Source: Lama glama (taxonomy: Eukaryota). Taken from it: DNA of 64,000 bases. Below, piece after piece: positions 1,617 through 58,300 of this stretch. The translations under genes and the position numbers were made by a program. Below the pieces are notes generated by a model. It worked only from the letters and a program-made list of their open reading frames with translations, made no database searches and was not told the origin of the DNA. The first letter of the stretch is position 1, and every line of letters begins with the position of its first letter. The stretch spans positions 19,036,001 through 19,100,000 of the forward strand of contig CM052816.1 of the NCBI GenBank assembly GCA_028534125.1, in the 5' to 3' direction.

Positions 1617-2249
1617 ATGGAGAAGCCCCTCACGGTTCTGTGGGTGAGCCTGCACCACCCCACGCCGGGCCTGGCCACCTTTGCCAACGTCCCACAGCGG
1701 CTGCAGCATGACACCAGCCCGCTGCTGGTGGGCCGGGGCCCGGACGCCCACCTCCGGCTGGAGCTCCCGCACCTCTCCCGCCGGCACCTGTCGCTGGAGC
1801 CGTACCTGGAGAAGGGCGGCACCCTGCTGACCTTCAACCTGAAGGCCCTGAGCCGCAAGAGCTGCGTGTGGGTCAATGGGCTGACATTGAGGTTCCTGGA
1901 GCAGGTTCCCCTGAGCACCATCAGCAGGATCGCCTTCTCTGGCATCCAGATGGTGGTGCACATTGAAGGAGGCACCTCCCTTGAGGCCTTTGTCTGCTGC
2001 TTCCATCTCAGCCCCTCGCCCCTGATTGACAGGCCCCAGGCTGAGGAGACCGACGAATGGGAAGGTGTTCCCCAGGAACGACCTCCCCCAGCTCCAGGGC
2101 AGCAGGCTCCGGGTCACCTGGGCTTTCTCCACGGCCCTGGCCCTTCGCAGCCAAGCCCTGGCAGAGCAACAGAAACGCAGCTCCAGAGGGAGCCCCCAGA
2201 CAGCGCGCTCCGCCAGCCCCGCTGGTCACCCCGAGCAAGCCTCGGCTGA
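1617..2249 (+). CDS. TIFAB: TRAF-interacting protein with FHA domain B, single coding exon, 210 aa
   Basis: ORF MEKPLTVLWVSLHHP...EETDEWEG matches recalled human TIFAB over 161 aa. FHA hallmarks present: G39-R40, S54-R-R-H57, N87-G88. Lies upstream of MACROH2A1 on the same strand, as in human. Confidence 0.96.
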   Translation: MEKPLTVLWVSLHHPTPGLATFANVPQRLQHDTSPLLVGRGPDAHLRLELPHLSRRHLSLEPYLEKGGTLLTFNLKALSRKSCVWVNGLTLRFLEQVPLSTISRIAFSGIQMVVHIEGGTSLEAFVCCFHLSPSPLIDRPQAEETDEWEGVPQERPPPAPGQQAPGHLGFLHGPGPSQPSPGRATETQLQREPPDSALRQPRWSPRASLG

Positions 2250-2632: not shown

Positions 2633-2638
2633 AATAAA
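2633..2638 (+). terminator. Candidate proximal polyadenylation signal of TIFAB
   Basis: First AATAAA after the stop codon, about 380 nt downstream. Confidence 0.6.
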
Positions 2639-3180
2639 CTGCAAGTATTTCATTAAGCTGGCATACCCAATAGGATTCCCTGATCCCCAGATGGGCCGCA
2701 TGCACGCCACGTCGTCACGCAGAGGCGGGAGCGGGAAATATGGGAGAGGTGTAAGAGGAAATTGGAAAGGTGGGGGCTTGCATTTCTAGAAGGACGAAGG
2801 TAAAGCTCAGGGCTTCCTAGGGATGGGGAGCTGGGGGCTGGGCCAGCCTGGAAGTTCATTGTCACCGTCCTCCATCCTCCTCATCCTTGTGCTCCCCCAC
2901 TCTCACTTCTGGATCAAAGCTTTGGCTGACCAGAGGGCAAAGGTCTTCAGGGAAAGGTGGCTTCCCAGAGCAATGGGCTCTTCTAGGGCTAATTCTAAGA
3001 GAGGATGGGGTGGGAGGTTTTGTTAGAATTCAGTCCAGTAGTTATTTCACTCCAGGTGGGTCATATACCAATGAGGGGTGGGATGGGGGTGGCCTTTCCA
3101 AATAAGGGACTAGTAGCGGACCAAGGCTGGGACAATTTTCTCAGTGCGCGTTGTAGGGGCTGGTCTGTGTCGGGGAGCAG

Positions 3181-3880
3181 AGCACAAGCAGTTACACGCC
3201 ATGCCATCCTAGGATGGGAGAGTGTGGTTTAGAAACCATGTTCACCTGTGGCATGAAGGGAGGAACCTACAAACCCAGATGGTTGCCATCAGCCTAGACC
3301 CTGCACTATGATATCCAAGGCACTGAAGCTGCCCACTGGCTGGCTCACATCCCAGGGGCTGTAACCACCTCCAACAAAGCTTTCAACACTCTCCACTTCC
3401 CGCCCAAGAAGAGAGATCCTTTTGCATCCAGTGCAGGCTGCAAGGAAGTTCAACTGCACAGCCAGCCCAGAGTATTTTCTCTGTGGGGACGATAGCAGTG
3501 GGCAGGACCAGAGACAGGGCGGGAGGGAGCCAAGAAACCCCCAGCTTGCTGTTTCAGACTCTGCTTTTTCGTGAAGTCTCCTTGGGAAACTCACTACCAG
3601 CCTCATAGCAAGTTTCCAAAACAGCACAGCTCCACTCCATGCTAGGCATCATTTTTCTTGAGATAGAAAACCATTGATTGAAATCACCAGATCCTTGACA
3701 CCCACCCCGATTCTTGCCCAGCAGTTGGAATTATCAGGTTGGCTTCTGGTCCTGATCCAGGAGCTGGATAACCCCTGCCTTTGCTGCGCAGCAGCCTGAG
3801 CGGGGCAGTGGGTCCTTCTCAACAATGGCCTCTGTATTCTCTTAGCTCCCACACACAGGGCAGCCCACACTGCTGAGGGG
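3181..3880 (+). pseudogene. DCANP1: Disabled (non-coding) sequence orthologous to human DCANP1/C5orf20
   Basis: Collinear peptide blocks in shifting frames resemble recalled human DCANP1: GLETM, GCHQP, QGL*PP, EGAKKPPACCFRLCFF, SFFL, LKSPDP*HPPRFLPSSWNYQVGFWS*S, SQQWPLYSLSSH, RAAHTAE. Position just 3' of TIFAB is as expected. Confidence 0.75.
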
Positions 3881-3890
3881 TGTGCATGTG

Positions 3891-3931
3891 CACACACACA
3901 CACACACACACAAACACAGGCACACACACAC
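3891..3931. repeat. Imperfect (CA)n microsatellite
   Basis: cacacacacacacacacacacaaacacaggcacacacacac seen directly. Confidence 0.95.
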
Positions 3932-3949
3932 GGTGGTAACTCCAAGCCT

Positions 3950-4145
3950 GGGCTCCACAGTCAGGCTGCTGCCTAGGTTATGGTTCTTGCTCCACACTTC
4001 CTAGTTCTTGGATGAGTGAATCTCCCTGTGCCTCAGGTTCTCCTGCAGGGAAATGGGGAAGATAACAACACTGAGAAGGTAAAGTAAGGCCCCGCAATAA
4101 AGCACCTAGTGAGTGTCTGGCACACAGTAAGTGCTCAGTTGGGTT
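3950..4145 (+). mobile_element. MIR SINE
   Basis: Core-like ctgtgcctcaggttctcc...aaatgggga and tail tggcacacagtaagtgctca. Confidence 0.75.
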
Positions 4146-4799
4146 GACTTTGTCCGATTTAGTGGGATGAATTGAATGCAAGTAGACACGTGGACTTCGC
4201 TTACACACACACACTCACTCATATACACACACATCTACTACAGTCACATCAGTTACAGTCAAGTGTACCCCAGAGCACTACAGTTCCCTGAGATGACATC
4301 TGGAAATGTGTAAAAACACAGCCAAGAGGCTAGCTCCAGGGTGCCCTGTGACCAAAGCAGGCTGAGACGGGAACTGAGAATGGATTCTTTGCACAGCAGC
4401 CCCCCGAGTGGCCAGGCTGCAGTCAGCAAAGGGATATGCAGAAGCAAGAAAGCCCAATGCCCTGTGAGCTGTTTGTCACCACCTCCCTGACCTCCCCCAC
4501 CGCCAGACTGGGCTGCAGGTTGGGAGACCTGCCTTCCACTGTATCTCCTGCCTGAGTCTGGCTCTCCAACTTCGCTCTGCGTCCTCTTCTTCCTCGGTTT
4601 CCGCTCCATGGCACCTGGTGGTGCTGATGCTGCCATCAGGTTACCTGGTCCCTGAATCAGACCCCAACTTTCCTCGCTGCGGCAGCTCTCCCCACACCCC
4701 GTGCTCCAGTCACTCATCCCCACACCAGGCCCCGAGGCCGTGCAAGGGCCGCGTGCGGGGCGAGGAGTCAGCAGAGCCAGCGCCTCCACTGTTCAGAGG

Positions 4800-5240
4800 A
4801 GATTCCGGAGTTAATGAACTCTATTCACATTGCAGGCTGAGGTCCCTCTTACCTTGAAAGTGAACTCGCAGGCGGATTAAAGTGAAATAAAATCTACCAT
4901 TTGAGTTACATTCTCAGCTGATTGGAAACATACATTACCTCCCCGTGACCGGGGCCGTGAGAAGGGAAGTTATTATCTTTCTTTAGAGTTTGTAAACTCT
5001 TTATGGCTGAGGCAGCTTTAATCCTGCTGGGGGAAAAAATGATCCGGGAATAAATTGCTCTCATTTACCTTTGTTTTCCAATCATACGCTCCAGTGGGAA
5101 CAAAACATCCTAAGTGAGTGGATATGGGGAGCCAGGTGATCCCCGACAGAAGAGTTTAATTATTTTCTTCTTTAGGCACGTGAGTTGAAAGGGCTTTATA
5201 CTGCCATTTGGCAAGGGAGCTCGCGCCACAAAAATGTGCA
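4800..5240. promoter_or_regulatory. Candidate developmental enhancer with PITX, HOX, SOX and E-box motifs
   Basis: Non-repetitive AT-richer block: GGATTA 4874-4879, TAATCC 5019-5024, TTTATGGC 5000-5007, CCTTTGTT 5068-5075, TTAATTA 5156-5162, CACGTG 5177-5182. Confidence 0.5.
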
Positions 5241-12907: not shown

Positions 12908-13407
12908 NNNNNNNNNNNNNNNNNNNNNNNNNNNNNNNNNNNNNNNNNNNNNNNNNNNNNNNNNNNNNNNNNNNNNNNNNNNNNNNNNNNNNNNNNNNNN
13001 NNNNNNNNNNNNNNNNNNNNNNNNNNNNNNNNNNNNNNNNNNNNNNNNNNNNNNNNNNNNNNNNNNNNNNNNNNNNNNNNNNNNNNNNNNNNNNNNNNNN
13101 NNNNNNNNNNNNNNNNNNNNNNNNNNNNNNNNNNNNNNNNNNNNNNNNNNNNNNNNNNNNNNNNNNNNNNNNNNNNNNNNNNNNNNNNNNNNNNNNNNNN
13201 NNNNNNNNNNNNNNNNNNNNNNNNNNNNNNNNNNNNNNNNNNNNNNNNNNNNNNNNNNNNNNNNNNNNNNNNNNNNNNNNNNNNNNNNNNNNNNNNNNNN
13301 NNNNNNNNNNNNNNNNNNNNNNNNNNNNNNNNNNNNNNNNNNNNNNNNNNNNNNNNNNNNNNNNNNNNNNNNNNNNNNNNNNNNNNNNNNNNNNNNNNNN
13401 NNNNNNN
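12908..13407. other. Assembly gap, 500 N
   Basis: Run of N; the round number suggests a placeholder size. Confidence 1.
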
Positions 13408-28012: not shown

Positions 28013-28140
28013 TATTTCGGGGGAGGGATGGAGGTCATTAAGTTTATTTTATTTATTCATTTAATGGAGGTACTGGGGATTGAACCCAGGACCTTGTGCA
28101 TGCCAAGCACACACTCTACCGCTGAGCTGTACCCTCCCCT
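27930..28140 (-). mobile_element. Camelid tRNA-derived SINE (Vic-1-like) with (TAAA)n tail
   Basis: Reverse complement reads ggggagggtacagctcagcggtagag...gtcctgggttcaatccccagtacctcca, with Pol III A and B boxes. (TTTA)n tract at about 27965-28013. ggtccaaaa occurs at 27913 and 28141. Confidence 0.85.
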
Positions 28141-34449: not shown

Positions 34450-36100
34450 GAACCCCAGGGGAGCCGGATGTGCAGTAGTCGTTTCGCGGAGCAAACCAGG
34501 TTTGATGGGGGCTTGTTACTTAAAGACAGCGGGAGGTTCTGAGGTGCGTGGGAGGTTTGCGCCGATTGGAAGGGAAAAGTGCTTGCTCGTTAACAGCAGT
34601 CGTGCTTCCCTGCCTGCGTTTATGGGGTGGCTTCTAGGGATGCTCAGCGAAAGTCCCCCCACGGTAGGTGCTCAATGTGTGCCACTCAAGACGCACAGGA
34701 AGAGACACATGCTGGAGAAGTGCCTCTGCCGGGGTCCCGACCTTTTTCCAGGACTTATAGCTCAGGGCGAGTCTCCGACTCGGGCAGGACCCTGCGTGCG
34801 GTGTCTGGGCGGGGTGCCTGAAGCCAGGGCTTTGGTGCGGCCAGGGGACTGACCTACCGATGTCCAGCCCGCACAGCGTGGAGAGCCCCTGTACGCGCAG
34901 CCACGGGTTTGGGGTCAAGGCCGGGGCGCCCCCGTGGTGCGGGAGGGGCGGCCGGACGCGCGGAGACGGGATGGGATATGACGAGCGGCGCGCTGTGCAT
35001 TGTGGGAAGCCCCGGGCCGCGGCGACTGGTTCCAGTTCACTCGGCAGCGGAGCCGGGCGGAGGGGGCGAGCGCGGGGCGCGCGGGCGGGAAGCGAGGAGG
35101 CGGGCGGGCCAGCGAGGATCGCGGAGAGAAAAGGCGCGAGCGGCCGAGAGTGCACAGGCCGGACACCTTGCTGCCGCTGCCACCGCCGCCGCCGCCGAGC
35201 CGCCCCGTAAGTGCCGCGCGGGCCCCCTCGCCGCACGCCCGTTCCCAGCCGCCCGGGTCCGGCAGCCGCGCTCTTCCGGCCGCGGGTGCCTGGGAGCGGC
35301 CGGGTCTGGCTCCCGCAGGGCGGCGCTCGGCCGGGGTCGGGCTGCCGAGCTCGCCGCGGCCCACGCCGGGGCCTCGCGCGAGCAGGGCTCCTTTCCAGGC
35401 CCTGCCCCGGCCGCGCGGGATTCCCTTTGGTTTTGTTCAAAAAGCAAACCCGGAAGCCAACTTCTCTTAGAACCGCGTTCTCCTGCCTGCGCCTGGGTGC
35501 TTTTGTGGGCAGAAAACAGCCCTGGCGCCTCCCAGGCCGACTATTCTCGGGGCGGGCGGGCTGGATTCGAGGCCGGGGGAGGCGCGGCAGCGCTGGCCGG
35601 CCAGCCTGGGCCTGGGCGCCTGGGAGCTGTTGTGCGCGGAGTTGTACTTGGTAAGGTGCCCACCCGCCCACGAGTTGCCGGCCCCCCGCACAGTAAGTTG
35701 GGTCTGAGCCCCAAGTGGCCGTGGTGTAGGCGTCTTTTGGGAGGGTAGGGCCGGGGGTTGGGGGATACTCCCGGATTGGAACAGGACAGGGGCGGGGAGG
35801 GATTTGTCCAGGGAGGCTGGAAAGGGGCCATGGGAACCCCCTCTCCTCTGGCTTGTTTCTTGCTTGGCCTTTTGTTTGCTTTGTGGTTGGGAGGTGTTTT
35901 TTTTGTTTTGTTTTGTTTGTTTTTAAGGTAACTCCTGAAGGCTGTAGGCTCCTCAGGTGGAGAAGGCCAGGAGAGGAGAGACTCGCTGGGGGGTGGGGGG
36001 AGTGAGGAGGTGAACGCGCAGGATGTTGCCGGCTGAGTTACCTGACAACAGGTGTGCGAGATGGCCTGCCCCGCCTCCACTCGTGCAGGGGCCACGGATC
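34450..36100 (+). promoter_or_regulatory. MACROH2A1: CpG island promoter of MACROH2A1 (core about 34770-35790)
   Basis: Very high GC and CpG content. ZNF143-type site (reverse TTCCCACAATGCA) 34996-35008, ETS cores 35273-35279 and 35450-35456, inverted CCAAT 34565-34569, GC boxes. Confidence 0.92.
35025..35206 (+). other. MACROH2A1: Non-coding exon 1 (5'UTR); start approximate
   Basis: actggttccagttcactcggcagcgg...gccgagccgcccc resembles the recalled human H2AFY mRNA 5' end; donor GTAAGT at 35207-35212; no ATG in the exon. Confidence 0.82.
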
Positions 36101-55340: not shown

Positions 55341-58300
55341 TAATCTTTTTCTCTCTTTTCATTTCAAAATAAATCTAGAAAGTAAAATTTCAAAAAGTAG
55401 GGTATCATGAAAATGGGTTCATGTGATATGTAGAGGCTGACATTTATATTTGAGCCAAAATCTGAGGATGGTGGTTCTACCTCAGAACTCCCCCACTTTC
55501 CCTGGTCCCCTCAGCCAACCTTGAGTCCTGACTTGAGACTGTGACGGGTGGCCTGCCTGGATCGTGGACCATCCTGGGCCTGCTTTCTCCTGAGATGACA
55601 GCTTTGTAGTTCATAGTGCCTGCCATGGATGCCACATGTTTGTTCTAATCCTTGAAACCAGGCCAGTGCCTCAGAGAACATCCTGCACTTCCATCCTGCA
55701 ACACCACCTGAATGCTGTGGTGCTTATTCACTTGTTCAGTAATTCATCTGTAATGACCTGTTTGTGAAAGAGTTTCCAAGGTCTGACCAGGTACAAGGTG
55801 CTGAGCTGGGTGCTGGGGTCAAAGGAATTACTGTTGAGTTCAACAGATTTGTATTGAGTGTCTTTGACGGGCCAGATGTCCCAAAGGACATACTAGGGAC
55901 CTCAGGACTGGGAGTATGCCTTCTCCAACCCTGCCTCATCACTGTGTACTCAGTCCCCAGCACAAGGGCAGACATTCTGCAGCTGCTCAGCACATAGGTT
56001 TTTGTTGAAGGGTAAGAAGACCAGTTAGAGGAAGGATGGGTTTCTGGAGGAGGGAATATTGGTAATGGCAGATGCTTCCAGGAACTGGATGAGGATGAGA
56101 GCTGAACTAGACTCCTGGATTTTTTAATGGTGCGTAATTAGGATTAACACCAGGGCATCGTGGGCCAGACCTGCCTGAGGAGAGGCAAGTGGCAGGGCAG
56201 CTGTTGGTGGCAAACAGGAAGGGTTTCAAGAGCTTCTCTCTCACTCTTGCTACAAAAAGGTTTGTCTCAGCTGTACCTTGAAAAGCAGAGGAAGCCAGGA
56301 GCTGCCCAACTGATCAAAGTAGCAGCATCCCAGATGGGTGCTAGAGGTGCCCCCAAGTCCCTCTGTGAATGACCATCAAGAATGGCTTTAAAAGAACTAC
56401 TTACTTACTGAGAGGAGGAGGAAGTGGGTAAGAATGCTACAAATATCTCTTCTCCCAATATCTTCCTGTTAAAATATCAGCAACTAATAAAACATATTTA
56501 TAGTCCTCTTACTTTCTTTCCCTGCCTAAGGGTGCCTATGTCAAGTCAACGCAGAATAAAGTACTATGAAAGCAAAAAGCCACTCCTCAGAGCTATAAAT
56601 AAGTTCCAGCAAGAAGACAAACCCAAAGGGTACCAACCACAGACAGCCTCCCTCCATCTCCCTGCTTGTCTCTTCCCACAGCCCCCTCTAGTTCTGGTTG
56701 CCGAAAGATGACAGATACACACTCTCCTTGGATTTGCCAGGCTGCTCAGCCAGCCTCCGGCTCTAATCTTGGCTCCCACCCTCCCTCCCTTTCTTCCTTT
56801 ATCTTCCACTCCACCTGCTCCCTTTTTAGACAAGTGCCTTCCATCTAGTGGCCAGAAAGCATGTGTTCCCTGGTACTTCAGGAGGCCTGTGGGGTCTACA
56901 GAAGGACATGTGTTGAATGGCCTTTATAGAAGGCATTTATATACGTCTTCTTATAGAAGGAGGCTCGTTCTCTGCCAGAGCTCACATTTTGCCAGTAGAA
57001 CTGTGAGAAGCACGTGGAAATCCAAGGCGTCTGGGAAAGGCTAATCTGTCAGCTTCCCTTGCTGTTGATATCCTGATTGATGCCCCCTCGGGTCATTGGT
57101 AACTGAGGTAATCTTTGGTTAACGTTTCTCTGTTGTCTCTGTAAATCTGAATATTGACTGCTGAAAGTCAATATCTGCTGTTCACTCGGAAAGTGAAGGT
57201 CCTTAGCTTGAGTAGAGTTGTTTTCTTTGCCCTCCCACCTCTGCCCCAGGCAGGTCCTGGCAGTCTCTCTCCTAGATTCCGATTGTGGCTCGTCTTACCA
57301 CGATCTTGGGGGCGTGGAGGGCCATGCTTTGCATGCAGAAACGGTGGGGCAGTTTAAGCAATGAAAACACATGCCATATATTGAGCACTTGCTATGTGTC
57401 AGGCAGTGGCTGAGCCTTCGTGTCTAGTGACCCACTGAATCCTCCGGCCACCTTTGCTTAGGAGGGAGCTGAGGCTCGGGGAGTTTAGATAAGGTCTCCA
57501 AGGTCACTCAGCACAATAACTCATCTCTGAAAGAGTATTTCCTGTAGGTTCTCATTGGAGCTGAAACCTTAGCAGTTAAGAGGAGAACCTCGGGACTCAG
57601 GAGCACTCGGTACACTTTGCATGTCCTCAACCTTTGGTGGACATCTCAGGAGGATGGGATTCACCCAGCCTTCCAAGGCTGGCTCCTGTCTTCGACGGAG
57701 CCATGGCCTGGCTGAAGAGGCAGACGTGGACTCCTGAGAGGGGCGGGCCCTGCACAGTCACAGGTGATTACCGGAGGGCATGTGGTATAGGTGTGCCAAG
57801 GCTGGAGGCAGTCCTATGGCCTGGCGCCCGCAGAGGACAGGTCCTGTGGAATTGGACTGGGAGGACAAATAGTCCCTGACAGGAAGGAGGAAAGTTGAGA
57901 GTTTGTAGGAAGGAGGCATGTGAACACAAGAGACCCAGGTGATGACCATTGGAGTGATGTGTGCTAGGCCACAGGGAGGGGCCATCTGGTCAGTGTGGGA
58001 AGTGCTGGCTGTTGCAGCAGCAGGACACAGAGGTCCTGGAGGAGAAGCACTCAGATGGCCAGAGGTGGCCTGAGGGCTGCCATGAGGAGAGGGAAGGGCG
58101 GTGCCCGGTTGAGTCTGAAGAGGCTGTAGCACTCAGTGGCACTGACGGTGGACTGGAGGGCCAGAAGGTTTTTGCCCAGTGTCCCTTCATTGTCCCCTTA
58201 GTGGAGAGGAGGTGGAATCATGGGTGACAGAGCTTAGGCAAGTTCTTAGACATGTGGCCCTTGGCATTGGGAATCCACTTGGGCAGACAGGGCCAGGGCT

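Follow-up and report, generated by a model that had tools for sequence, protein, structure and literature searches.

The DNA directly behind TIFAB in the llama (Lama glama) is a genuine but unremarkable ortholog of one half of a doubtful human ORF, DCANP1. In the window, i.e., the whole stretch of 64 kb that was analyzed, positions 3511–3878 are a syntenic non-coding ortholog of DCANP1-region DNA (E 6.9e-39), as a sequence-only reading of positions 3181–3880 had proposed, with the restriction that the second half of the ORF alone is covered. Codons 1–121, including the start codon, have no counterpart within the 64 kb. This is likely to be neutral DNA from the 3′ side of TIFAB, which was non-coding in the ancestor, in which a frame was opened in primates and from which a part was deleted in camelids.

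As a real protein-coding gene, DCANP1 is doubtful and is doubted in print, being named among potential non-coding genes (bioRxiv 10.1101/2024.12.05.626965; PMC12462614). Its row in the supplement of the latter study holds a best-exon PhyloCSF of -24.8, a potential non-coding tag, no APPRIS domain or structure score, a PeptideAtlas column that reads as empty and the UniProt status 'evidence at protein level' (PMC12462614). The gene is also listed among those with biallelic loss of function (PMC3868571). PMC3599919 and PMC3532038 cite reports on a DCNP1 protein and on links with depression and IgE. In human, the last exon of DCANP1 overlaps that of TIFAB (bioRxiv 10.1101/2022.04.26.489449), and the locus has already been shown to align across a large part of the mammal tree, where its signal is non-coding (PMC12462614). 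Among the papers found, none treats DCANP1 as a de novo gene, which subscription papers and further supplements may do; the name was not found in the supplements of PMC9911349 (5 files), PMC12534706 (19 files), PMC6442393 (4 files minus file 1) and PMC4860702 (2 files minus file 1).

The human side of the comparison was reached through the TIFAB cluster, which contains the human gene model hCG1980385 (P0106, Celera, 777 aa) joining TIFAB to downstream exons. With residues 474–777 of this model as query, 8 ORFs were obtained among 472 candidates. P0126, an ORF present on 496 contigs, is 98% identical to P0106 544–609, and P0135, a 318-aa ORF from a cluster look-up, is identical to P0126 across 90 residues. 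P0135, the source of which is probably a non-human ape, is linked to P0106 by compatible runs of 199 and 91 nt, against at most 38 at the other offsets of this pair.

A protein alone determines the residue sets that are possible in its shifted frames, and this was used to read the +2 frame of P0135. In this frame position 35 can be a Met, position 279 can be a stop, and no codon has to be a stop, so that 244 codons result, equal to the length that UniProt gives for DCANP1 (PMC12462614). This length alone is no proof, since other starts and stops are also possible in the frame. Codon 117 (in the 244-codon numbering) permits R, G or a stop, which is compatible with the published variant p.R117X, observed in homozygous state (PMC3722564). 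Moreover, the human DCANP1 motifs given in the sequence-only reading proved credible, as 70 of their 71 residues fit the residue sets of the frame when read by eye; the six motifs were placed, likewise by eye, at codons 16–20, 39–43, 65–70, 126–141, 178–204 and 225–236. Because the 244 codons, codon 117 and the motif residues all fit, the +2 frame of P0135 is taken to be DCANP1, and the DCANP1 map used here is thus based on degenerate back-translations of the P0135 protein, not on DCANP1 protein or human DNA. The same DNA carries one frame that is open for 318 codons in P0135 and a +2 frame that can carry the 244-codon ORF; long open frames seem to form easily at this locus. Other primate-like ORFs (six sequences of the P0128 type and P0137, identity 82% and higher) appear shifted by one base near codons 47–57, a shift that is read from short tails and is weak, and may hint that the 244-codon frame is not general in primates.

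The features on which the argument relies are the following:

1617..2249, + strand: TIFAB coding sequence, 210 aa, with FHA domain (PDB 8wwy_B, E 2e-63); upstream synteny anchor
2633..2638, + strand: AATAAA that could serve TIFAB as a proximal poly(A) signal, located before the studied region
3181..3305, + strand: DNA in which the GLETM and GCHQP look-alikes lie, without significant alignment to DCANP1 ORF codons 1–121
3306..3509, + strand: ortholog of the human DNA that precedes the DCANP1 start (P0130 aa ~19–81; P0106 aa 474–511)
3500..3515, + strand: junction of upstream-flank homology to ORF codon ~122, with a block of at least 0.55 kb missing versus human-type records
3511..3878, + strand: non-coding ortholog of DCANP1 codons ~122–244, with 4 stops and 7–8 indels
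3880..3977, + strand: ortholog of the DNA directly past the ORF stop (43/58 fixed bases), with a CA repeat at 3891–3931
4096..4101, + strand: AATAAA, candidate distal poly(A) signal; if used, the region would lie inside a long TIFAB 3′ UTR
4783..4877, + strand: downstream anchor, to a human-type ORF (P0125) and the end of the Celera model P0106 (E 2e-11)

The position of the region is syntenic. TIFAB of the window is 98.6% identical to the alpaca record and 92.9% to the camel record, and the DCANP1-region DNA lies directly behind it, as the sequence-only reading had stated for human DCANP1. Downstream, the block at 4783–4877 completes the order of the human model P0106, in which TIFAB is followed by the ortholog of 3383–3494, the start of P0126/P0135, the ortholog of 3726–3802 and the ortholog of 4783–4877. 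Camelid TIFAB extends about 11 codons (2208–2249) beyond the end point of most aligned mammals, and human TIFAB, with 161 aa, ends far before the marmoset record (205 aa); the C-terminal length of TIFAB is labile. Residue 9 (1641–1643) is Trp here and Arg in the alpaca and camel records, reflecting either a variant or an assembly error. A word share of organism A of 0.43–0.44 could reflect a short transcript or a related species; the reading that it marks the poly(A) site was dropped.

Coding potential is absent at the camelid locus. The six peptides and the three stops named in the sequence-only reading are indeed present where it had placed them, and a long + strand ORF is lacking, as it had stated: ATG ORFs on this strand in 3100–4100 reach 27 codons at most. 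Direct searches for DCANP1 gave no Pfam family in any of the three read-through frames, a single phmmer match against 1.84 billion representatives, to an unrelated protein with 16 repeat stretches, and none of three candidates in a word search. Human DCANP1 was not returned by phmmer, nor was it recovered by the word search, both of which are therefore insensitive. These blanks are uninformative, because human proteins sit in a 15-billion collection. The Rfam scan gave no family in the studied region.

The homology of the second half of the ORF is clear from several alignments. A degenerate DNA profile of P0135 gave a single match in the 64 kb, of nt 468–953 to 3511–3977 (nhmmer, E 6.9e-39), and the sub-models of P0135 for residues 151–200, 201–250 and 251–285 match in order (E 9e-7, 2e-12 and 2e-8). 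In a separate local alignment, codons 122–245 scored 146.8 bits on 3505–3885, a value reached by none of 200 control segments. A second anchor is formed by P0106 aa 609–640 at 3726–3802, which none of 200 shuffles equaled. Four stops interrupt the aligned half, i.e., TAG 3606 (codon 156), TAG 3643 (codon 168), TGA 3696 (codon 184) and TGA 3753 (codon 203). The two TGA triplets had been put forward before as interruptions of the ORF, and the alignment places them there; the two TAG triplets are additional, and at codon 168 the primate residue set allows a stop too. The several indels that had been suggested amount to 7 or 8, depending on which of two aligners is used, and none is a multiple of three. 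Of the 115 codons aligned, 86 fit the primate frame.

For the first half, the result is the opposite. Codons 1–121 scored 14.1 bits on 3150–3510 versus a control mean of 15.1, with 130 of 200 controls as high, and the P0135 sub-models for residues 1–50, 51–100 and 101–150 reached a best E of 0.15 in the window, with no match near the studied region. On the same stretch, P0130 scored 73.5 bits, which none of 200 controls attained. The match of P0130, which shares an exon with P0106 474–511, is confined to 3306–3509 (E 1.3e-14; 74/100 fixed bases), as its aa 1–18 are at chance on 3181–3305 (146 of 200 controls as high). The peptide QGL*PP and TAA 3362 fall inside this ortholog of the upstream flank. 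TAA 3362, which lies at the edge of a 15-nt indel, is not the DCANP1 Tyr site that had been supposed, because it is inside the upstream-flank block.

These data bear directly on the proposal that 3181–3880 is a full-length, collinear pre-gene copy of DCANP1, the stops and indels of which mark the enabling mutations. In its favor, the first three look-alikes are near-collinear, and at least two 4-of-5 look-alikes in the collinear band were seen in 15 of 300 random segments, which makes the coincidence somewhat unusual. However, the DNA score of the first half is at chance, 3306–3509 belongs to a different human segment, and ungapped identity around the first three motifs is 10/36, 13/31 and 9/32, versus 17/34, 16/34 and 26/37 around the last three. 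The proposed peptide collinearity consequently stands for the last three motifs, which lie in the aligned stretch 3511–3977, and fails for the first three. As the alignment covers codons ~122–244 only, whereas codons 1–121 with the start codon are absent, a full-length copy is highly improbable. Short collinear peptide look-alikes can mimic full-length orthology across a large indel.

The window changes cleanly from one homology block to the other: the upstream match stops at 3508–3509 and ORF homology begins at 3511–3512. Since the P0130/P0106 exon precedes the start of P0135 in the human model, the window passes from the upstream flank to codon ~122 at ~3510. The missing block comprises at least 155 P0135 codons and the 31 codons common to P0130 and P0131; as these pieces do not overlap in any frame, it measures at least 0.55 kb. 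One could suppose that the camelid genome does have this block and that the assembly skips it, the more so because a gap of 500 N at 12908–13407 shows that the assembly is not gapless. The junction, however, contains neither N nor a long repeat, and an assembly artefact is very unlikely.

To compare rates of divergence, identity was counted at the bases that are fixed by the protein, using the Fisher test. The ORF half is identical at 144/197 of such bases (73%) versus 117/158 in the flanks (74%; p 0.90), so that no coding-type conservation above the flanks is present, while TIFAB reaches 226/255 (89%; p 3e-5). Within the ORF, codon positions 2 and 3 are identical at 68/87 and 76/110 bases, respectively (p 0.20). 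The tilt toward position 2 likely stems from the method, because the flanks tilt the same way (55/71 versus 62/87, p 0.47). The aligned half of the ORF thus diverges in a neutral-like manner, as the flanks do.

This is difficult to reconcile with the view that DCANP1 is an old placental gene, of which the camelid copy is a half-deleted unitary pseudogene. The compatible codons and the slight tilt mentioned above would agree with such a loss, and the region resembles unitary pseudogenes like GJE1 and GNG14 in its stops, its frameshifts and a start lost in one lineage (PMC12462614). Unlike these, it lacks coding-type conservation, and an intact non-primate ortholog was not found, in searches that are insensitive, as human DCANP1 itself was not returned by them either. 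In addition, identity is the same as in the flanks and far under that of TIFAB, the negative PhyloCSF and the missing APPRIS scores do not point to an old gene, and the P0128 type and P0137 appear to be shifted, if their short tails are read correctly. Loss of an old gene is therefore given a very low probability.

The preferred explanation takes the region to be ordinary, neutrally diverging DNA 3′ of TIFAB, which would belong to a long 3′ UTR or to the 3′ flank. It probably did not code for protein in the boreoeutherian ancestor, and it may be UTR in camelids. Through point changes and small indels, a 244-codon frame would then have been left open in the TIFAB terminal exon of some primates; DCANP1 is the annotation of this frame, which may not encode a selected protein. 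In camelids, a deletion of at least 0.55 kb would have removed the DNA of the human start codon and of codons 1–121, thereby bringing the upstream flank, at ~3510, next to the DNA orthologous to codons ~122–244.

As the comparison involves two sequences, camelid versus human-type, the polarity of the change at the junction is indirect. Alternatively, the start codon and codons 1–121 could have reached the TIFAB 3′ region in primates on an inserted block of at least 0.55 kb, which would make DCANP1 a chimera and the camelid locus an empty site at ~3510. The clean junction fits this, as do the absence of a match to the block in the 64 kb and the fact that every record found with the block shares at least 82% identity with the human model; searches that yield only close records, however, could not have detected distant ones. 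Against an insertion, the ORFs of the block gave no Pfam family at the cut-off, and the tail of P0130 faintly and non-significantly matches a dispersed repeat of the window, a hint of old DNA. In the repeat test, the score of this tail was reached by none of 40 shuffles, but with a margin of 0.3 bits, and those of two other pieces by 1 and 2 of 40; a repeat origin of the block was not adopted on this basis. The repeat, which is presumably MIR/L2-like, lies at 4017–4164 with a second copy at 57380–57490 and has an internal inverted part. Were half of the ORF primate-only, a relative branch length of 0.77 would be hard to attain, given that the score is an average. Loss of old DNA in camelids is favored because DCANP1 does have this value, versus 0.22 for C20orf203 and 0.04 for CDRT15 (PMC12462614). 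A camelid deletion is thus considered the likelier event, and a primate insertion rather unlikely. If true, the insertion would provide a clear origin for a disputed gene that association studies have linked to depression and IgE, and the product of the common human R117X allele would be encoded entirely by the inserted piece, the frame reading on into ancestral UTR DNA otherwise.

The stops and indels of the llama do not reveal the mutations that enabled the ORF. None could be identified as such, because a pairwise comparison with a single distant genome cannot tell which lineage changed. Syntenic non-coding outgroup DNA is the standard test for de novo genes, in which the mutations are inferred from closely related species (PMC6542195). 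The llama region is like the non-genic syntenic orthologs of de novo candidates described there, in that this outgroup DNA can be aligned at the syntenic position, is non-coding and carries stops and frameshifts relative to the focal ORF. It differs in that the alignment extends over only half of the ORF and lacks the start codon, and in that the outgroup is a single, distant one, so that specific enabling changes are not inferable. Because half of the ORF is missing in them, camelids serve poorly as an outgroup for DCANP1. A comparable non-coding ortholog exists for any young ORF in alignable DNA. DNA of other mammals was sought through TIFAB patterns, which were confirmed in none of 46 metagenome stretches and none of 24 viral ones; a 21-nt pattern gave four metagenome matches, all of 21–23 nt only, i.e., chance.

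Among the genes treated in the survey mentioned above, DCANP1 belongs to the same group of recently evolved, potentially non-coding human genes as BLID, PBOV1 and HEPN1, which combine a strongly negative PhyloCSF with DNA that aligns widely across mammals, and its APPRIS age value equals those of BLID and C20orf203 (PMC12462614). The half-loss of the ORF in camelids was not found mentioned in the accessible parts of that study (PMC12462614). Unlike this group, DCANP1 has its terminal exon in common with a conserved gene on the same strand (bioRxiv 10.1101/2022.04.26.489449).

Elsewhere in the window, the non-coding block at 4783–4877 is closer to human than its surroundings (47/57 fixed bases) and adjoins ATTAAA at 4876 and AATAAA at 4886, which makes it a candidate regulatory or UTR element. 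A tRNA-like Rfam match at 28065–28136 (- strand, 54 bits) represents either a tRNA or the head of a SINE. Lastly, a CpG island at 34501–35500 is accompanied by a GC-rich ORF of 256 codons (34978–35748) and is probably a promoter region.
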